NCBI GenBank assembly: GCA_050184975.1
Contig: JBFWZV010000013.1
Span: forward strand, 821 to 64,820
DNA: 64,000 nt
Direction of reading: 5' to 3'
DNA from: Pseudolabrys sp.
GTDB taxonomy: Bacteria > Pseudomonadota > Alphaproteobacteria > Rhizobiales > Xanthobacteraceae
Below the pieces are notes generated by a model. That model was not told the DNA's origin and made no database searches. It worked only from the letters and a program-made list of their open reading frames with translations. Shown here piece after piece: positions 5,462-35,419 of the stretch. Made by a program: the position numbers and the translations under genes. The first letter of the stretch is position 1. Each line of letters begins with the position of its first letter.

Positions 5462-5491
5462 CTTGACGCTTGTGACCACGCAAGACTATAT
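5462..5491 (+). promoter_or_regulatory. Sigma70-type promoter CTTGAC-N18-CTATAT
   Basis: CTTGAC 5462-5467 and CTATAT 5486-5491 match the rhizobial RpoD consensus; the same boxes and spacing recur at 34249-34278 with a different spacer. Confidence 0.7.
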
Positions 5492-5607
5492 TCGCATTTA
5501 TATACTTGACAAAAGTACGACTATAATCCTAATTTGAGCCTGCGTGACAGGCCGGTGTCGTCAGTCAGGTAAATAGATGCGTTTCGCCAGAGAAAAGGTG
5601 AAACGCG

Positions 5608-5817
5608 ATGAATCAGAAGAATTACGACGTTGAAATCACTCCTCTGGTGGTCGAGGAGGTGTTTCAGGTATTGGTCCGAAGTGGAATCCAGTCGGAGTTG
5701 ATGGGGGCGGATAGACTACTGGTTGACGAAATGCTTCGTAAGTTTTGTCAGCTTTCCGGGCTTCGGGTGAAGGGCGGCTCAAATGAAACAGGTAAAACAT
5801 CACAAGCTGAAGTCTAA
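5608..5817 (+). CDS. Small hypothetical protein inside IS element 1
   Basis: 69-aa ORF after a hairpin containing AAGGTG; overlaps the 3' end of the minus-strand cargo gene, so it could be a shadow ORF. Confidence 0.4.
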   Translation: MNQKNYDVEITPLVVEEVFQVLVRSGIQSELMGADRLLVDEMLRKFCQLSGLRVKGGSNETGKTSQAEV

Positions 5818-6262
5818 CAAACTCCGTTTTCTCGACAAATTTCCACAGACCGCTTGTCGTTAGCGCCTCTGAGCCAGCAGGATTATGGGACGCCAAAACA
5901 AACACTTCGTCTGGCTCAATTCCAGGCTGTTCTTCGTCACCGTCCTGCCCTAACACATGCCAGTGTATGAACTCATTTCTCGTTTGATCTAGCTGCCTGA
6001 TTAATTTCAAAACGCTTCGCCAGAAGATCTGATATTCATCACCGAATTCGCTCTCAATTAAAGTGTCGATTATTCTGTTGCGAGAGTGAGTGTTTGTTAT
6101 GCGATAAAACACGATGCTTGCCTTTTGCACATCGGCGTCGATTAGGTCTGCGAACTGCAAGCATAGTTGTTGTTCGAGATCAGAGTATGCTTCCAATGCT
6201 GCGGCTCTCGCCAACTGCAACTTTTTAAGTAATTCTGGCGGATCAGATCGAAGGGTATCCAT
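5636..6262 (-). CDS. Passenger protein, putative HEPN-like (RNxxxH) domain
   Basis: 208 aa from the first in-frame ATG (6262); mostly helical with the motif LDQTRNEFIHW; no clear SD. Confidence 0.6.
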   Translation of the reverse strand: MDTLRSDPPELLKKLQLARAAALEAYSDLEQQLCLQFADLIDADVQKASIVFYRITNTHSRNRIIDTLIESEFGDEYQIFWRSVLKLIRQLDQTRNEFIHWHVLGQDGDEEQPGIEPDEVFVLASHNPAGSEALTTSGLWKFVEKTEFVRLQLVMFYLFHLSRPSPEARKADKTYEAFRQPVVYPPPSTPTGFHFGPIPETPPRPPEE

Positions 6263-6410
6263 GGGACAAAAACAACGCTTGTCGGAAACACAAAAGTTGA
6301 TGGGCGCTCTTGTGCGGATGCAGCCAAAGCCGCACGAGGAAATGCGCCTCAAGCCTAAAGCCAAAAAGGCTAAGAGTCCCGCGCGGAAACGCGCTTCCGC
6401 CAAGCGATAA
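6261..6410 (+). CDS. Conserved basic micro-protein (MxPKxHxxM[RK]L motif)
   Basis: MGQKQRLSETQKLMGALVRMQPKPHEEMRLKPKAKK...; motif shared with 32478-32660. Confidence 0.6.
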   Translation: MGQKQRLSETQKLMGALVRMQPKPHEEMRLKPKAKKAKSPARKRASAKR

Positions 6411-6448
6411 ACCGCCTCGCAGTATCCCTTATAAATCGGGGGTTTTGC

Positions 6449-7390
6449 TTAGTGAGTCGGCCGGTACGTCAGGCGCTTGCCTTCGATACCCTTCATTGCA
6501 AGCGCCGTCCGTTCCCCGTCAGTCACGCCGAGACCCGAACGATTGTTGTGGCGGAACTCAAACTCGGTGAGATACCGCTGCAAGTGCTGTTCGCCGCAGA
6601 AGCGATAAGTGCCCTTCATTCCGCGCTTGAAGTTACCAAAGAAATTCTCGACTGCGTTGGTCGTCTGTCCGTCTTTGCCGACATAAAAGCCGCGCTGGTT
6701 CCAGCCATGCTCTACTGTTTTGTGAGCGGCAAACTCGCGACCGACTTGAGTGTAGAGAGGGCTTTCGTCGGTGTGTAATTCGCTGGAGCGGTGAGCGTTA
6801 CGAACCAAAACGTCGCGCACGGTTTCTTTGTTCGCGCGCTGCACATGGAACACGCGAGCGCGGCCAGAGGGCTTCTCGACAAGCGCGACAACGGACGCTT
6901 TCTTGCTGTGGCCCTTACGGTAGGACTTCGCCCGCTTCGACGTGCGGCCATAGTACGTCTCGTCAGCCTGAATGCTGGAGCCTTCGCCACCCATAGGCGA
7001 AGGAGCAAGATCGGTCATCGCTTCACGCAAGCGGTGCATCATGAACCAAGCGGTCTTATAGGTGACGCCGACAAGGCGATGGATTTCGTGGGCAGAGCAG
7101 CCGTTCTTGCCTGAATTGAACAGGTGAGCGGCCATCCACCACTTTGTCAGGGGAACCTTGCTGCGCTCAAAAACTGTGCCGACCGTGACGGTGAACTGGC
7201 CTTTGCATTCGTGGCACCAGTAGAGGCCGGGACGCGCGGACTTGCCTTCGATCTTGCCGATCTTCTCTTGATGGGAGTTGCCGCAGTGAGGACAAATAGG
7301 ACCATCGGGCCAGCGCACCGCCTCAAGGGCTTCGCGGGCCTTGGTTTCGTCCTGAAAGATGGGGTTCTGAAACGTTGCTTTCTTGGCCAT
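6449..7390 (-). CDS. IS1595-family DDE transposase
   Basis: N-terminal Zn ribbon CPHCG..CHEC, ADETYYG, HTDE, TNAVENFFG and GKRLTY; ATG 7390 preceded by AGGGAG. Confidence 0.95.
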   Translation of the reverse strand: MAKKATFQNPIFQDETKAREALEAVRWPDGPICPHCGNSHQEKIGKIEGKSARPGLYWCHECKGQFTVTVGTVFERSKVPLTKWWMAAHLFNSGKNGCSAHEIHRLVGVTYKTAWFMMHRLREAMTDLAPSPMGGEGSSIQADETYYGRTSKRAKSYRKGHSKKASVVALVEKPSGRARVFHVQRANKETVRDVLVRNAHRSSELHTDESPLYTQVGREFAAHKTVEHGWNQRGFYVGKDGQTTNAVENFFGNFKRGMKGTYRFCGEQHLQRYLTEFEFRHNNRSGLGVTDGERTALAMKGIEGKRLTYRPTH

Positions 7391-7463
7391 GTCCGGCACT
7401 CCCTATGACCTGAATCCTAGGGAATGGCCGTACATTTGTCAAGTATATAAATGCGACTATATT

Positions 7464-7901
7464 CCTATCGCTTCATCCACGCGAGGGCGCCGCTCGAGGG
7501 CGTCTCTGGTGGCGGGATGAGGCGCGGTGCCCGCGCGTGACGTTCGCAGCGTCATTCCCGGGCGGTTCCGGACCCCGCCCCTCCGGCACTAGGACCGGGG
7601 CGCGTGGAGCACGCTGACGGAAGGGCTTAAAGCCCTCAACGAAAAGCGCGGCCCGGAACCGAACAGAGCCGCATTGGAGCGCCGAGAGGCGTGCGCGGCT
7701 CGCAGGTTTGTTTGCGCAGGCGCGTAAACTTGCCTGCGGCGCAAGCCGCGCGCCATGTGCCGCAAGGCTCATGGCCCGGACGACCCGAGCGCCCTCCCGG
7801 CGCTCCAGTCCCTCGCACTTCTTTTGAAGCGCGAGCCGCGATCTGGGAGTTCAGGCGTGCCCGCGCCTTTCGAACAACAGGGAGGTTCCCGTGCGCCTTC
7901 C
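7464..7901 (+). ncRNA. Candidate large structured non-coding RNA, copy 1
   Basis: Collinear homology with the reverse complement of 31269-31690; compensatory helices; lies downstream of the reconstructed promoter. Confidence 0.65.
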
Positions 7902-11026: not shown

Positions 11027-11125
11027 AAAAAAAGGAGCCGCCGTTGCCGGCGGCTCGAAGGTGATAACAGGGAGGCGTCAAACAGAGTGGACAGGAGCCA
11101 CTCATGTCCATGAAGATGGACGATC
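11027..11125 (-). ncRNA. Candidate small RNA (three hairpins, CUCCCU single-stranded tract, U-tailed terminator)
   Basis: Hairpins at 11106-11121, 11085-11103 and 11035-11056, followed on the minus strand by U7; 5' end approximate. Confidence 0.55.
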
Positions 11126-11145
11126 TCAGTAATGAACGAGAAAGC

Positions 11146-11160
11146 TTAATGTCGGGTTAA
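11146..11160. promoter_or_regulatory. CtrA-binding box TTAA-N7-TTAA
   Basis: TTAA TGTCGGG TTAA, upstream of the sRNA candidate and rcdA. Confidence 0.75.
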
Positions 11161-11194
11161 GTGCGCGATTTTCCGGCAATCGCGTTTGAGCGGG

Positions 11195-29881: not shown

Positions 29882-31108
29882 TCACGGCCGCAAAATCTCC
29901 GGCGGGTGGCGGACCACGGTCTGGCGGCCGTTCTTGAACACGGCGAGCGGCGCGGCGATCTCGGCGATCGCCTGTTCCGGCGTTTCGGCGTCGATGATGA
30001 CGACGTCGCCGGGGTTGCCGACCGCGAAGCCGTAATTTTTCATATTGAGCAACCGGGCCGAGCGCGTGGTGAGCATGTCGAAGCAGTCGCGCAGTTCCTG
30101 CGGGCGGTCGAGATACTGCAGGTTGGCGTACATGTTGGCCATGCGGATCAGCGAGCAGTCGCCATAGGGCGTCGCCGGGTTGAGCACGTTGTTGGTCGAG
30201 AGCGAGCAGTTGACGCCGTGCTCCAGCAGTCGGTTGGCGTCCGCCACGCCGCGCGGATGGGAATGCGTGCAGTGGCGGCCCATCAGAAACAGGTCGGTCG
30301 CCGGCAGCACGGTGACGCCGATCCCTGAATCCGCCAGTTGCTTCGCCAGCACCGCGAACGGCTCCGGCGGCAATAACGAGAGCTTGGCCATGTGCCCGGC
30401 GACGACGCGGCCGCCGCGCTTGTACTTGTCGGTGAGTTCGCGGACGTAGTGAATGAACATGTCGTCGGCGGTCGGCCCGACGTCGAGATGCATGTCGATG
30501 TCGACGTCGTAGTCGCGGGCGAGTTCGAAAATGCGCTCGATCTGGCCGCGCGGGTCTTTGTCGTAGCGCGGCGCGCCGCCGATCACCGGGGCACCGCGCT
30601 TGAGCGCCTCGACCAGCAGTTCGTCGGTGCCGGGAAACGAGATCAGCCCCTCCTGCGGGAACACGCAGATCTCGACATCGATCGCCCATTTGAGGTCGTC
30701 GATCGCCGCCAGCACGCCGTCGAGCCCGCGCAGGCCGATGCCGGGATCGACCTCAAGCTGGGTGCGCATGCGCGTCGCGCCGTTGACGATGCAGGCCTCG
30801 AGCGTGCGCTTCGCCCGCGCATGCACGTCCTCGACCGTCATGTCTTTCTTGACCGGCGTGACGCCGAACACCGGCGACAGCTTGGCTTTCTCCTGCGGCG
30901 CGCAGCGGTCGATGATGCGCGCCTTGTCGAGATGGATGTGGGTCTCGATCAGGCCCGGACAGGCGAGCTTGCCGTTTGCGTCGTGGATTTTCGTGTTCGT
31001 GCCGGCGTCGATACGCGGTTCGATCGCCGCAATCTTGCCGGCCTTGATGCCGATGTCGGTCGCGCCGTCACGGCCGGGAACGCGCGCGTTGCGAATGAGG
31101 AGGTCCAT
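29882..31108 (-). CDS. Amidohydrolase (cytosine/creatinine deaminase-like)
   Basis: ETHIHLDK metal motif, FPQEG, IDMHLD, AGHMAKL, STNNVLNP. Confidence 0.9.
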   Translation of the reverse strand: MDLLIRNARVPGRDGATDIGIKAGKIAAIEPRIDAGTNTKIHDANGKLACPGLIETHIHLDKARIIDRCAPQEKAKLSPVFGVTPVKKDMTVEDVHARAKRTLEACIVNGATRMRTQLEVDPGIGLRGLDGVLAAIDDLKWAIDVEICVFPQEGLISFPGTDELLVEALKRGAPVIGGAPRYDKDPRGQIERIFELARDYDVDIDMHLDVGPTADDMFIHYVRELTDKYKRGGRVVAGHMAKLSLLPPEPFAVLAKQLADSGIGVTVLPATDLFLMGRHCTHSHPRGVADANRLLEHGVNCSLSTNNVLNPATPYGDCSLIRMANMYANLQYLDRPQELRDCFDMLTTRSARLLNMKNYGFAVGNPGDVVIIDAETPEQAIAEIAAPLAVFKNGRQTVVRHPPEILRP

Positions 31109-31181
31109 CGACGGCAGTCCTTTCAAAGCCCTTCAAAGTCATGGCCGGGAGTTGTTGGCCCGGCCGACGATACTTTTGCAT

Positions 31182-31266
31182 GTCATCACCGGGCTTGTCC
31201 CGGTGATCCCGATTTCTGGAACTGTGCCTCCCTAAGCGGGATGGCCGGAACAAGTCCGGCCATGAC
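31182..31266 (-). repeat. Empty 85-bp REP doublet, inverted relative to 29792-29876
   Basis: Reverse complement: GTCATGGCCGGACTTGTTCCGGCCATCCCG-CTTAGGGAGGCACAG-TTCCAGA-AATCGGGATCACCGGGACAAGCCCGGTGATGAC; a degenerate REP also lies at 31138-31168. Confidence 0.88.
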
Positions 31267-31690: not shown

Positions 31691-31852
31691 AATATAGTCG
31701 CATTTATCACCCTGACAAATGTGAGATTATTCCTATGGCGCAGGGTGAAAATCCTGAGTCCGATCAAGCGGTTGTGGTCAGGCTTGTTCATCGCCCGGCG
31801 GGGTCTCTGTTCCCGGCGGGGTTGTATCTTGCCGAGCCGGTTGATCTGCCAC

Positions 31853-32479
31853 TCAATGAGCCGGGGGAAGTCGCGTCAGCTTTAGGATTCTCGGCTTCAA
31901 ATACTCATCGTCAGAAACGGTCACATGCCAAAGAGTCTGCGCACCTGAACCATAGGCAGAGATAGTGTGGCTTAGCGCCAAGCTGTTCAGGCGCTGGCCC
32001 CACCATCGCGACCTAAAGAAATCATCTGTGTTTGTTTCGATCTGACCAAAGGTCTTAAGGTTTCCCCTGTGCAGGACATTTCCGCACTCATTGTATAGTT
32101 CGATCACTTCGTCTTTCGTAACAATGGCTTCCGGTCTGTCGAGTACGGCCATGCTCCCGTTTTCATCTATGGTGACCTTGGTGGCTGCGGGGAAAAAATC
32201 AGGGTGCAGATGCGACATGGTGCGAAGCAAACGGTCCGCCTGCCAAATCGACTCTATTCGTTTCGACTGAGTGGCCGGAATGTCGCCGTGAGCGATCAGG
32301 CTTGAGATTGCAAATAGCTCGCACATCATCCGCAGTTCGAGATGGCAAAACTCAAAGCGCGGTCGTATGCCAAGCTCCAAGTCTTCGGAAAATAGTGTTT
32401 CAATGACTCGACCTCGGAGAACAATCTCCTGCATAATTCCGACATAGACCGGCTGCCATTCCTCGGAAATGTCCGTCAT
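31853..32479 (-). CDS. Passenger protein of unknown function (possible degenerate HEPN-like fold)
   Basis: 208 aa from ATG 32479 with AGGAG SD; motifs LELRMMCELFAISSLIAHGDI and LYNECGNVLHRG. Confidence 0.7.
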   Translation of the reverse strand: MTDISEEWQPVYVGIMQEIVLRGRVIETLFSEDLELGIRPRFEFCHLELRMMCELFAISSLIAHGDIPATQSKRIESIWQADRLLRTMSHLHPDFFPAATKVTIDENGSMAVLDRPEAIVTKDEVIELYNECGNVLHRGNLKTFGQIETNTDDFFRSRWWGQRLNSLALSHTISAYGSGAQTLWHVTVSDDEYLKPRILKLTRLPPAH

Positions 32480-32660
32480 GCCTTCTCCTAAAAATAAAGC
32501 GCCAGCGTTGAAAAAACGGCAGAGTAAGAAGCTAGAGTCCGAGCTGGATTCCGGCCCGAAGGTCGATCGCAAACGCGATCAGATCATGCGCAACATGCTC
32601 GCGATGCCGCCGAAGCAACACAAAGACATGAAGTTAGGTGCGAAAAAGCCCGGTAAATAG
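32478..32660 (+). CDS. Conserved basic micro-protein (MxPKxHxxM[RK]L motif)
   Basis: ...QIMRNMLAMPPKQHKDMKLGAKKPGK; homologous to 6261-6410; followed by a terminator. Confidence 0.6.
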   Translation: MPSPKNKAPALKKRQSKKLESELDSGPKVDRKRDQIMRNMLAMPPKQHKDMKLGAKKPGK

Positions 32661-32671
32661 CCGGGCTTTTT
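32643..32671. terminator. Bidirectional intrinsic terminator
   Basis: AAAAAGCCCGG-TAAATAG-CCGGGCTTTTT between convergent ORFs. Confidence 0.8.
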
Positions 32672-32705
32672 GATTCGTAAGGGTATGACAGAGTCATGTT
32701 CTCGC

Positions 32706-33029
32706 TCAGCGAGTGTCACCGTACTTCTTCATGACCGCAGCGGCAGCGAATGCGCTGCGTACTTTGGTATCGATCTTGCCGCCGTGAAATTTTTCAGCGA
32801 AGGCGAGAAGATCATCTGGGTTGACGATCACCTTCTCGATGATGATGCCAGGGGGCAACTGCGTCTTAAGTTGCGGAAGCCACCTTTGCATCTTTTCTTC
32901 GAATGCATCGAAGGTGGGTTGCATCTCGTCGTTAGAAATCTCACGGATGCGCTGGTAATCTTCGCGGCGATACCAAGCCAAACCCATCGCTGGAACTTTG
33001 GCCCCGAAGGGCGGTGATAAGGTATTCAT
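32706..33029 (-). CDS. Second passenger, hypothetical protein
   Basis: 107 aa, GLAWYRREDYQRI...EKVIVNPDDLLAFA...VRSAFA; ends at the bidirectional terminator. Confidence 0.65.
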   Translation of the reverse strand: MNTLSPPFGAKVPAMGLAWYRREDYQRIREISNDEMQPTFDAFEEKMQRWLPQLKTQLPPGIIIEKVIVNPDDLLAFAEKFHGGKIDTKVRSAFAAAAVMKKYGDTR

Positions 33030-33243
33030 TAAAGGCTCCGGTCTTGGCGGAGCCGCGCGCCAGCATTGATGAAAAAGCGTCCGCGACGGCTCACCAAGTG
33101 GCGCGGGCGTTAGAGGGGTGGCGAATCGCAGTCGCCACCCCTCAATTCGACCATGCGGGAGTTGAGTTGGTTAGGCCTTTGGGCCAAATTTGCGCTTTCT
33201 CCACAAAAGAAAGCGCTTCGCAGCTTGTTTTTTCGAGCGAATC

Positions 33244-34185
33244 TTAATGAGGCCGTCGATAGGTGAGGCGCTTTCCTTCGGCACCTTTCGCGATCAACTC
33301 AGCGCGGGCAACATCTTCAACCCCAAGGCCGGAACGATTGCAGTAACGGAACGAGAATTCGTCCAAGTAACGCTGCAAGTGTTGTTCGCCGCAGAAGTGA
33401 TAGGTGCCGCGCATTCCGCGCTTGAAGGTGCCAAAGAAGTTCTCGACCGCATTCGTGGTCTGGCCGTCTTTGCCGACATAGAAACCGCGCTGGTTCCAGC
33501 CATGAGTGACGGTCTTGTGAGCGGCAAATTCGCGGCCGACTTCGGTGTAGATACCGGCTTCGTCCGTGTGCAGTTCGCTTGAACGGCGAGCATTGCGAAC
33601 CAGAATATCGCGAACGGTTTTCTTGTTCGCGCTCTTGACGTGAAAGGCACGGGCGCGGCCAGAGGGCTTCTCGACAAGAGCAACGACCGAAGCCTTGTGG
33701 CGATGGCCCTTGCGATAGCCCTTCGCGCGCTTCGACGAATTGCCGTAGTAGGTTTCGTCGGCTTGGATCGTCTGGCCTTCGCCTCCCATCGGGGACGGAT
33801 TGCCATCGCGCATCGCTTCACGAATGCGGTGCATCATGAACCAAGTCGATTTGTACGAAATGCCCAACATGCGGTGCAGTTGGTGAGCGGACATGCCTTT
33901 CTTGCTGGCGGCCATCAGGTGCATCGCCAGCCACCATTTCGACAGCGGAATCTTGGAGCGTTCAAAGACAGTGCCGACCGTGACCGTGAACTGGCCCTTG
34001 CATTCGTTGCAATAGAACAGGCCCGGACGATGCGACTGCTTTTCGCCTTCGATCTTCGCAATCCGTTCCGGATCGGAATTACCGCAGTGAGGGCAGATCG
34101 GGCCTTCCGGCCAGCGGATCGCCTCCAAGTGCTCGCGCGCCTTGGTTTCGTCGGTGAAGATCGGGTTTGTCAGATTGGCGGACAT
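33244..34185 (-). CDS. IS1595-family DDE transposase
   Basis: CPHCG..CNEC, ADETYYG, HTDE, TNAVENFFG, GKRLTY; ~75% identical to 6449-7390 by manual alignment. Confidence 0.95.
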   Translation of the reverse strand: MSANLTNPIFTDETKAREHLEAIRWPEGPICPHCGNSDPERIAKIEGEKQSHRPGLFYCNECKGQFTVTVGTVFERSKIPLSKWWLAMHLMAASKKGMSAHQLHRMLGISYKSTWFMMHRIREAMRDGNPSPMGGEGQTIQADETYYGNSSKRAKGYRKGHRHKASVVALVEKPSGRARAFHVKSANKKTVRDILVRNARRSSELHTDEAGIYTEVGREFAAHKTVTHGWNQRGFYVGKDGQTTNAVENFFGTFKRGMRGTYHFCGEQHLQRYLDEFSFRYCNRSGLGVEDVARAELIAKGAEGKRLTYRRPH

Positions 34186-34248
34186 GGGTAGCTCCTATGC
34201 CCTTGTTTTTATAGGGTAGAGCTACTTTTGTCAAGGTTATAAATGCGA

Positions 34249-34278
34249 ATATAGTCCAGAGCGACTGAGAATGTCAAG
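34249..34278 (-). promoter_or_regulatory. Sigma70-type promoter CTTGAC-N18-CTATAT
   Basis: Minus strand CTTGAC ATTCTCAGTCGCTCTGGA CTATAT; same geometry as 5462-5491. Confidence 0.7.
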
Positions 34279-34597: not shown

Positions 34598-35239
34598 TCA
34601 CTGGCGCGACGGCGGTATTCTCATCGAAATTCGATTGAAAATCGGAACAATTGATATTGTTCGGACTTCTTCAGGCTTTGCAGGAGTCAGAATAGCTTCA
34701 ACGGCGGTATAGACTCCAGGCGGGAAGGTAGTAGTAACCGAAAACTTCTTCTTTTTCTGAGATGCCGAAATCTGTTCGTAGGTTGCGGTCTTGATATCCC
34801 ATGGCAGACCCCACGCAACCTCGAACTCAGCGCCGTTTAGACTTGCGACCGTCAAGTTTCCAACGTGGAACTTAACGCGATAGCCATCCAAATATGGTTG
34901 TATATTTTCAATCGAGATAGGAGTTGGCCCGAGAGTAGTTCGTGCGATTCCGTATTTTCCTTCGTCGTTTAGTGTCGCTGGAGAATTCTGAAAGCCTTCA
35001 ATTTGGCTTTGAAGAAGGGTTCTGTGAAATTCAAGCGTTACAATTTTTGTATTTAGTTCTTGATAGGTCTTTCTCAGTGACGATATCTCTTGCCGTAGCA
35101 TAGATAGAGATTTTTCGGTTTTCTCTTGTGAGCGGGCTAGATGTCTGTCAACAGCAGGAGCCACGAGGTTATCGACTGGTTCGCAAGCACTTAGCGCTGC
35201 AGCACCAATTAGAATCCATAACCATTTGAAGATAGTCAT
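34598..35239 (-). CDS. DUF3251 (YajI-like) lipoprotein, low GC
   Basis: Lipobox ALSAC, coiled coil, then ISIENIQPYLDGYRVKFHVGNLT..NGAEFEVAWG; GGAGG SD; AT-rich codons. Confidence 0.7.
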   Translation of the reverse strand: MTIFKWLWILIGAAALSACEPVDNLVAPAVDRHLARSQEKTEKSLSMLRQEISSLRKTYQELNTKIVTLEFHRTLLQSQIEGFQNSPATLNDEGKYGIARTTLGPTPISIENIQPYLDGYRVKFHVGNLTVASLNGAEFEVAWGLPWDIKTATYEQISASQKKKKFSVTTTFPPGVYTAVEAILTPAKPEEVRTISIVPIFNRISMRIPPSRQ

Positions 35240-35419
35240 TAGACCCTCCCTACTCGAACTAAACGCCAATGAAATAGGGGCATTATTGTCGCCACAAAAA
35301 TTAGGGCGATCTCAAAGGACGCTCTACCAAAACCGCAAATTAGCATCCTTATCAACGAATTGATTTTTCTACCCCCTCAACACCCTTCGTTTTTCAACGT
35401 CACACCATTTGCTTCTCTG

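Follow-up and report, generated by a model that had tools for sequence, protein, structure and literature searches.

Two intergenic stretches in the DNA analysed here carry genes for what is probably a large non-coding RNA, some 400-520 nt in length, that fits no established class and would act in trans. The whole stretch of 64,000 nucleotides is referred to below as the window. A first-pass annotation of the window had noticed two collinear, diverged paralogs, and this two-copy observation is confirmed and lies well beyond chance. RNA copies 1 and 2 align from end to end and share identical islands of 19 nt (ACGAAAAGCGCGGCCCGGA, 7639-7657 in copy 1 and 31509-31491 in copy 2), 16 nt (GGAGCGCCGAGAGGCG, 7676-7691 and 31472-31457) and 10 nt (CGCTGACGGA, 7612-7621 and 31544-31535). 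The start that had been proposed for copy 1, position 7464, stands, but the proposed end at 7901 does not, since homology to the closest paralogue stops near 7897. The family is larger than the pair that had been noticed: BLAST and a covariance model located eight full copies in the 3.53-Mb assembly, plus a variant at a ninth locus on contig 15, whose promoter, hairpin F and 3' pseudoknot match those of the others but whose 5' half is unlike theirs. What emerges is a new family of multi-copy genes, each equipped with a promoter; if they are transcribed, their product has a conserved fold with several pseudoknots. The annotation's view of an independently transcribed, large structured RNA is supported by sigma-70-type promoters belonging to the copies themselves, by covarying helices and by a terminator in copy 2; transcription is predicted from the promoters and the sequence.

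7464-7897, plus strand: RNA copy 1, the genome copy that formed the first stretch of the earlier annotation
31690-31269, minus strand: RNA copy 2, with the architecture of copy 1

Every copy is preceded by its own strong sigma-70-type promoter, CTTGAC-N17/18-TATATT, and the intact copies in this genome all carry CTTGAC(A)-N17/18-(T/A)TATATT-CCTATC. In a promoter scan an intact copy scored 11/12 (TTGACA-16-TATATT). The spacers between the hexamers are unrelated among the paralogues of this genome, which argues that the hexamers are conserved for function and not by recent copying. The AT-rich sequence conserved at the -10/+1 region of the RNA genes can be written (A/T)GG-NTATATT-CCTA. Some lineages use a second promoter type instead, AAAA-CTTATCCCCGC-N14-CTTATC. 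An intrinsic terminator is present in some copies of the family; that of copy 2 consists of a hairpin (31291-31275) followed by U6 (31274-31269), so that the hairpin-U6 terminator read from the letters alone is found at 31291-31269. Within the window the promoters of both copies have been split by insertion sequences, with the following features.

5462-5492, plus strand: original copy 1 promoter, displaced by IS1, with the -35 hexamer CTTGAC at 5462-5467 and an 18-nt spacer
5485-5492, plus strand: left target duplication ACTATATT at copy 1, at the IS1 boundary
5493-7455, minus strand: IS1, 1963 bp, IS1595 family, with 21-23-bp inverted ends
5636-6403, minus strand: low-GC cargo ORF of IS1 with an RNEFIH motif
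6449-7399, minus strand: IS1 transposase, 313-316 aa
7436-7463, plus strand: hybrid promoter made by IS1, in which TTGTCA, within the IS end, is separated by 16 nt from the retained TATATT
7456-7463, plus strand: right target duplication at copy 1, containing the retained TATATT
31699-34247, minus strand: IS2, 2549 bp, second IS1595 member, with target duplications at 31691-31698 and 34248-34255
34248-34278, minus strand: original copy 2 promoter, displaced by IS2, with the -35 hexamer CTTGAC at 34278-34273, then the spacer and ACTATATT
34598-35269, minus strand: low-GC (44-48%) islet with one gene, for a putative lipoprotein of 223 aa, immediately upstream of the original copy 2 promoter

When the two elements are removed, both RNA copies again sit behind CTTGAC-N18-CTATAT, as the first reading of the sequence had maintained. 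The insertion points of IS1 and IS2 in the RNA -10 box agree to the nucleotide, the two elements point in opposite directions relative to the RNA, and each is flanked by the 8-bp duplication ACTATATT. The IS2 transposase shares 76% protein identity with that of IS1, and the cargo ORFs differ. We take both to belong to the IS1595 family, a name that we assigned from a reading of the transposase protein sequence; the elements have the traits of this family, namely a transposase of about 310 aa, short inverted ends, an 8-bp duplication and passenger genes. The genome holds just two copies of this clade, both at RNA -10 boxes. In each of the two insertions in the window, a new -35 hexamer, TTGTCA, comes from the IS end and stands 16 nt from TATATT. 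This hybrid arrangement is identical at copies 1 and 2, and that of copy 2 scored 10/12 in the promoter scan (TTGTCA-16-TATATT). Because the IS end rebuilds the -35 hexamer, the RNA gene probably stays expressed.

The predicted architecture consists, in order, of helix P1, a five-hairpin core closed by helices Pa and Pb, the long hairpin F, in which lineage-specific inserts sit, and a 3' module. The elements are positioned in the two copies as follows.

7469-7478/7515-7524, plus strand: helix P1 of copy 1, CGCUUCAUCC/GGAUGAGGCG
31685-31677/31642-31634, minus strand: helix P1 of copy 2, CGCCUGCUC/GAGCGGGUG
7481-7487, plus strand: alpha strand of copy 1, GCGAGGG
7524-7528/7668-7672, plus strand: core closing helix Pa of copy 1
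7531-7535/7647-7651, plus strand: core closing helix Pb of copy 1
7537-7555, 7560-7580 and 7581-7600, plus strand: hairpins A, B and C of copy 1
7602-7614 and 7622-7636, plus strand: hairpins D and E of copy 1
7566-7571 with 7653-7658, plus strand: core pseudoknot of copy 1
31588-31584 with 31496-31492, minus strand: core pseudoknot of copy 2
7676-7684/7798-7806, plus strand: long hairpin F of copy 1
31472-31464/31409-31401, minus strand: hairpin F of copy 2
7810-7816, plus strand: beta strand of copy 1, CCCUCGC
31397-31391, minus strand: beta strand of copy 2
7854-7882, plus strand: 3' pseudoknot of copy 1
31319-31289, minus strand: 3' pseudoknot of copy 2

Several of these elements had been recognized from the two copies alone. 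The 5' helix that was said to keep pairing despite its changed sequence is P1, which is present in both copies; in most loci it closes off the 5' domain, some 50 nt ahead of the core, and shows extensive compensatory change. A hairpin with a UCGCA loop and a long GGAGCGCCG stem with a variable insert likewise exist in both copies. The fold z-scores of the two window RNAs are -5.2 and -5.3, and none of 100 shuffles was as stable. For a broader view we built R1, a 178-position covariance model of the core, from five native copies. The first-pass annotation had proposed that covariation be sought in a larger alignment, and such an alignment was assembled from 78 homologues drawn from many genomes; since these were fitted to R1, the counts lean towards the model. 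In this alignment standard pairs occupy 97.8% of the pair cells, compared with 83.4% in shuffles, and changes on both sides of the pair are seen in 18 of the 31 nested pairs (290 cells). Not one of 500 shuffles reached the observed covariation on any of five measures, in permutation tests that ignore phylogeny. In a control in which the partners were slid by 1-3 columns, pairing was only 40-50%. The composition of one hairpin pair illustrates the extent of the change: GC 22, UA 19, CG 16 and AU 10 across the alignment. The G-U pairs are compatible with the promoter strand only; at one pair, for instance, 47 sequences have CG and 29 have UG.

The core pseudoknot joins the loop of hairpin B to the strand that follows GCGCGG. 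A pairing between a CCGG-containing loop and CCCGGA had been suggested for the two window copies, and it is both present and covarying: duplexes formed within a sequence average -12.5 kcal/mol, those formed across sequences -9.9 kcal/mol, and 0 of 2000 permutations matched the difference. Matched variants include UGCCGGG/CCCGGCA, CGUCGGG/CCCGACG and UUCCGG/CCGGAA. A second long-distance contact links the G-rich alpha strand of the 5' domain with the C-rich beta strand located directly after hairpin F, some 300 nt away, and its covariation was reached by 0 of 1000 permutations. The beta strand is equally specific for a local downstream strand, gamma, and the alpha and gamma pairings each beat 500 shuffles. 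Beta may therefore have two mutually exclusive pairings, alpha:beta and beta:gamma, and part of the fold may be a switch, a property more typical of regulatory RNAs. The 3' module is an H-type pseudoknot made up of a hairpin, GGCG-nnCCCnG-CGCC, a linker, AAAGAAYA, and then (C)GGG. Here a CCCC loop is accompanied by GGGG in 10 of 12 cases, as opposed to 0 of 22 otherwise (Fisher p = 5e-7, uncorrected for relatedness), and a CCCGG loop by CGGG in 15 of 15 versus 1 of 19 (Fisher p = 9e-9, likewise uncorrected for relatedness). A crude energy-permutation test of this pseudoknot was not significant, because the pairing strands vary too little. An alternative 3' module or inserted domains are seen in some copies and lineages, and others have a variant core, as at loci L238 and L239, that escapes R1. 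Kissing between loops A and C was considered and dropped, these loops being without consistent covariation.

The sequence does not behave as a protein-coding gene. Among close paralogues the substitutions fall by codon phase as 31/28/29, 31/30/26 and 19/27/17, with no three-base periodicity. The lengths of insertions and deletions are mostly not multiples of three and include 1, 2, 4, 5 and 7 nt, and any given frame is open in only 4-8 of 73 sequences. The phase counts of 31/28/29 and the non-triplet indels bear out the earlier remark that no ORF is conserved between the two copies. The remark that the RNA falls outside the families then considered was examined against Rfam and holds, with no match by gathering score or by E-value. 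In the window a gathering scan with Rfam 15 returned only BjrC1505, located elsewhere. Scans by E-value with 4227 Rfam families, applied to both copies and a distant relative, gave a best E of 0.11, which is at chance level, and all of these matches fell at least 20 bits under the gathering scores. By the same Rfam 15 comparison the RNA is not recognized as RNase P, tmRNA, 6S, a group II intron, cobalamin, HEARO, ROOL, GOLLD, OLE or raiA. Fourteen loci from relatives yielded only an unrelated chrB-a leader and a tRNA; the chrB-a match, in locus L198, is a separate leader farther downstream. Literature searches on the organism, the topic and the exact conserved sequence strings found no description of the RNA.

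The distribution of the family is patchy. R1 matches 41 of the 61 genomes of the same genus, with up to at least 21 copies each, and 64 of the 201 genomes and 28 of the 62 genera of the same family, all of these counts being lower bounds, since variant-core copies are missed by R1, and the per-genome numbers from the family-wide search being at-least values. In the rest of the order, matches were obtained in one genus of a second family (5 genomes) and in one genome of a third, and in the rest of the class in 0 of 400 genomes. Several genomes of the genus that are 98-99% complete have no copy detectable with R1. True matches occur in metagenome-assembled genomes labelled Pseudolabrys, Pseudorhodoplanes, Undibacter, Rhodopseudomonas sp., Methyloceanibacter and Hyphomicrobiales. 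Viral contigs gave no true match; a phage origin was considered and set aside, the pattern matches in these contigs all being due to chance. The RNA family is accessory and multi-copy, with 0 to at least 21 copies per genome, and among the genomes scanned with R1 it is limited to a few families of one alphaproteobacterial order. In a tree of core sequences the copies of one genome often cluster, and copies from the genus are scattered among those of other genera and Methyloceanibacter. One complete genome of the genus has 12 copies that are 80-95% mutually identical over a shared unit that begins about 12 nt ahead of the -35 hexamer and stops at the RNA 3' end. This span shows that the unit multiplies or is homogenised as DNA, promoter included; no inverted ends and no target duplications were found at its ends. 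No partner protein and no conserved neighbouring gene were found.

Inspection of the neighbourhoods in this genome reveals that three or more of the nine copies have a convergent ORF after them and that the genes 3' of the copies are mutually unrelated, which argues that the RNA is not a general leader. REP elements often adjoin the copies. Directly upstream of 6-7 of the nine copies lies a low-GC stretch of 1-4 kb (42-50% versus 64%), and the GC content downstream is normal. The genes of these islets encode an OLD-like ATPase-TOPRIM protein, a DndB-like protein with an MT-A70 methylase, and Rx4H-motif proteins. Elsewhere the asymmetry is modest, at 0.60 upstream versus 0.645 downstream in 33 loci (p ~0.002), and among 40 further loci clear islets were seen upstream in three and downstream in none (p ~0.04). 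We rejected the idea that upstream low-GC islets are a universal rule, since they accompany only about 3 of the 40 further loci. Downstream of copy 2 lies an amidohydrolase gene (window 29882-31126); in eight genomes of the genus, no RNA gene lies within 1.5 kb of its orthologue, a comparison that is weakly informative because the other flank is also non-syntenic.

The association with IS1595 elements extends beyond this genome. Transposase homologues with the same ends are present in 58 of the 201 family genomes, and the flanks of these relatives show an AT-rich 8-bp duplication followed, on most, by CCT(A). We found five exact insertions into the -10 box, in four genomes of three genera. At loci L238, L239 and L243, which represent three genomes of two other genera, one IS flank is the 5' end of the RNA, and at L243 the opposite flank is the matching -35 half. 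A sixth insertion, at locus L247, lies just upstream of a type-B promoter copy. The RNA is enriched in genomes with close relatives of the transposase (11/16 versus 53/185, p = 0.002). The simplest reading of these data is that the transposase prefers AGG-(AT-rich 8 bp)-CCT, a target that the RNA promoter offers in many copies. The abundant, conserved AT-rich -10/+1 sequence would have become the preferred landing site of this cargo-carrying clade.

How should the family as a whole be understood? The structural complexity of the RNA suggests the core of a ribonucleoprotein or an RNA-only machine and not a base-pairing sRNA or a leader, and we favour an RNA that would act in trans in one of these capacities. 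Complete genomes of a single genus have anywhere from 0 to more than 20 copies, which can be nearly identical within a genome, and this pattern suits a selfish amplifying element no less well than a host-beneficial RNA. A selfish RNA-gene cassette would be a unit of about 480 bp, promoter plus RNA, that amplifies and moves between lineages and whose elaborate fold serves its own propagation or stability and not the host. We regard this as unlikely, but it deserves serious consideration. It would account for the patchy presence among congeners (0 to at least 21 copies), for the sharp common boundaries of the 12 copies with 80-95% identity in one complete genome, for a tree that clusters within genomes and yet scatters the copies of the genus among other genera and Methyloceanibacter, and for the eight amidohydrolase loci without an RNA gene. 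The unit ends, however, lack terminal inverted repeats and target duplications, the genome is without a reverse transcriptase and TnpB, and no recombinase is associated with the copies. Moreover, the promoter spacers are wholly different between paralogues in this genome, which implies that many copies are old and have been kept by selection on the hexamers and the RNA, and unless the RNA itself has a function, it is hard to account for strong purifying selection on more than 40 base pairs. A different proposal, to which we give little credence, is that a catalytic or ribonucleoprotein-forming RNA class, present in many promoter-equipped copies, doubles as a dedicated chromosomal docking site for IS1595. 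If this were true, it would be a bacterial counterpart of the targeting of retrotransposons to Pol III genes; the RNA loci would seed small islets of defence genes, and RNA and IS would co-evolve. It is very unlikely that the tie to the adjacent mobile elements is itself the function, with the RNA serving as a partner of or antidote to the HEPN-motif and other defence-like IS1595 cargo, or as a co-evolving safe-harbour module. The five independent exact insertions, the sixth at a type-B promoter copy, the enrichment of the close IS clade with the RNA (11/16 versus 53/185, p = 0.002), the islets upstream of 6-7 of nine copies (OLD-like, DndB-like with MT-A70, and Rx4H-motif genes) and the lower upstream than downstream GC in two further samples all speak for such a tie. 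But an IS or islet is rare elsewhere (3 of 40 loci in four sister genomes, 0 of 13 in G009), the cargo genes vary by locus, many RNA-positive genomes have no IS, and a transposase preference for AGG-(AT-rich 8 bp)-CCT is the simpler explanation.

At least as unlikely is that the RNA works in cis as a leader or attenuator, in the manner of a very large riboswitch, and controls read-through into the sequence downstream by means of alpha:beta, beta:gamma and the 3' pseudoknot. The specific pairing of beta with either alpha or gamma, both beating 500 shuffles, would suit such a device, as would the ribosome-binding site and ATG directly after the 3' pseudoknot in some loci (L201) and the same-strand ORFs that begin 30-90 nt after several copies. 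Several observations speak against a riboswitch or leader: a convergent gene faces three or more of the nine copies, a REP element follows the strong terminator of one copy, the downstream genes are mutually unrelated, and nine 400-nt leaders per genome without a shared regulon would be unprecedented. The RNA might instead be a known class diverged beyond the reach of Rfam, such as an RNase P- or 6S-like RNA, an ORF-less derivative of a group II intron or a HEARO- or omega-RNA-like guide; we hold this to be most improbable. Its size and pseudoknotted complexity do overlap those of such classes, and its multi-copy, patchy distribution resembles that of HEARO and ORF-less introns. All 4227 Rfam families gave chance-level matches only, however, each copy has its own promoter and is not inside an element, the 5' end is locked in P1, leaving no free guide segment, and the genome has no reverse transcriptase or TnpB-type gene. 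An RNA of a retroelement (group II intron or retron) was rejected on the last of these grounds, PF00078 being absent from this 98%-complete genome; it is also absent from many RNA-rich relatives, for example G068, G056 and G073. An OMEGA guide RNA was rejected on the strength of a TnpB search, which found no member of PF07282 in this genome, and of the pairing of the 5' end in P1; PF07282 exceeds its curated cut-off in 1 of the 61 genomes of the genus. The presence of the RNA is tracked by neither PF00078 nor PF07282. Finally, we can hardly credit that the copies are a mere DNA repeat, a MITE or REP and not an RNA, even though they are multi-copy, intergenic, GC-rich and palindrome-rich and often have REP elements as neighbours. 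Before every copy stands a conserved directional promoter, only one strand accommodates the G-U pairs, covariation extends to long-range helices and pseudoknots that span 50-300 nt, and terminal inverted repeats and target duplications are absent, including at the shared boundaries of the 12 copies.

The RNA invites comparison with the large ornate bacterial RNAs OLE, GOLLD, ROOL and raiA, which it resembles in being several hundred nucleotides long, in its many covarying helices and pseudoknots, in its restriction to certain lineages, in a role that is not obvious and in its presumed independent transcription. GOLLD, ROOL and raiA are described as forming RNA-only complexes (10.1101/2024.12.08.627333). 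The new RNA differs from all four in that the Rfam scans show no match of sequence or structure, and in being alphaproteobacterial, very GC-rich and dispersed in up to at least 21 promoter-bearing copies. GOLLD and ROOL, furthermore, are often phage-borne, whereas the new RNA was not found in viral contigs. With the HEARO/IscB omega-RNA and the TnpB reRNA it has in common a structured, pseudoknotted form, multiple copies, a patchy distribution and a link to mobile DNA. OMEGA RNAs lie inside IS200/605-type elements, beside or overlapping iscB or tnpB, and have a free guide end. The present RNA has no such gene adjacent to it, in a genome devoid of the TnpB zinc-ribbon family, and it possesses its own promoter and a paired 5' end; the DDE-type IS1595 associated with it targets the RNA gene and does not encode it. 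In their use of a multi-copy RNA gene as a safe harbour the insertions recall Ty3 and the Dictyostelium TRE elements at Pol III genes and bacterial integrases at tRNA and tmRNA genes, and as at tRNA-gene landing sites the insertion position is fixed relative to the start of transcription and the RNA gene would remain functional. The usual target of bacterial islands is the 3' end of an RNA gene; here, in contrast, a DDE transposon duplicates 8 bp of the -10 box and its own end replaces the -35 hexamer. The RNA is also reminiscent of the CsrB and RsmY/Z sponges, which have their own promoter and terminator, possible paralogues and a variable number of similar hairpins, represented in our case by the UCGCAA-type loops of the hairpin F inserts. 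Unlike these sponges, it has no repeated GGA motifs and does have a large, invariant pseudoknotted core.

New classes of large, intricately folded bacterial RNA are rarely found now, and earlier ones led to new biochemistry. The RNA described here has two or three pseudoknots and may contain a conformational switch; it reaches at least 20 copies per genome and is common in a family that is represented in many soil metagenome assemblies. The insertions at its promoters clearly illustrate how a clade of DDE transposons can home to a specific promoter and repair it with the transposon's own end. Two directly testable questions are thereby opened: the role of the RNA in these bacteria, and how the IS achieves an insertion that is both sequence-specific and non-disruptive.

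Elements of this IS1595 clade strongly favor one kind of target, marked by an 8-bp AT-rich duplication and AGG...CCT flanks; the evidence comes from the two insertions in the window (5493-7455 and 31699-34247) and from loci L236-L263. Insertions of this clade recur at the -10 box of RNA genes across different genera, and in both window insertions the IS end contributes a TTGTCA -35 at 16 nt. An alternative promoter precedes some RNA copies (L187-L189, L200, L045, L049, L100, L133 and L247) and consists of an A-tract, CTTATCCCCGC, about 14 nt and then CTTATC(N)T. Its -35 region is similar to the DnaA-box-like sequence TTATCCCC, and both this type and the CTTGAC type are found in a single genome.

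The following features accompany RNA copies or lie elsewhere in the window, with the last two entries located outside it.

5636-6403, minus strand: IS cargo ORF of low GC, with an RNEFIH motif (Rx4H, HEPN-like)
31853-32572, minus strand: IS cargo ORF of low GC
34598-35269, minus strand: putative lipoprotein gene (223 aa, low GC), flanked on one side by the original promoter of RNA copy 2 and on the other by an acetyl-CoA-synthetase-like gene
31182-31266: REP-like palindromic repeat of the GGCCGGA...TCCGGCC type, directly 3' of the copy 2 terminator
11028-11167, minus strand: BjrC1505, an alphaproteobacterial sRNA (full-length Rfam match of 119 bits; gathering threshold 50)
L198, 5352-5426: chrB-a leader (Rfam match, 79 bits), just downstream of an RNA copy
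Contig 15 of the same genome as the window, 572 to about 900: ninth RNA locus, with promoter, F-like hairpin and 3' pseudoknot

GC is 0.49-0.51 across the two cargo ORFs, and neither has a match in Pfam. Motifs akin to RNEFIH are present in ORFs upstream of other RNA copies, RRNLHTH in a 389-aa ORF on contig 68 and RDAEAH in a 167-aa ORF at L090.

At the 3' side, the REP-like repeat recurs on many contigs of the genome, and in another genome, G009, RNA copies are also adjoined by REP-type elements. In several genera (L288-L290, L294, L296, L187-L190 and L205) the RNA is followed by a conserved tail, GCGTTGGCTGTTTGA(A/C)AAT(T/C)GAA, which may act in place of a terminator or serve as a site for protein binding. 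The chrB-a leader in L198 possesses a promoter of its own and is an element separate from the neighboring RNA copy.

At the ninth locus, which has an IS3-family end about 450 nt upstream, the promoter and 3' pseudoknot are the same as in other RNA copies, the F-like hairpin bears several UCGCAA-type loops and the 5' half is different; because common parts are combined in this way with a different 5' half, the RNA family is modular. A variant subfamily at L238 and L239 (genomes G122 and G173) retains P1 (the 5' helix), hairpin F and the alpha and beta strands of the long-range helix, with hairpin D replaced and a far bigger E domain. This subfamily is not detected by R1, the covariance model of the RNA core, and the family is therefore wider than the R1 counts.
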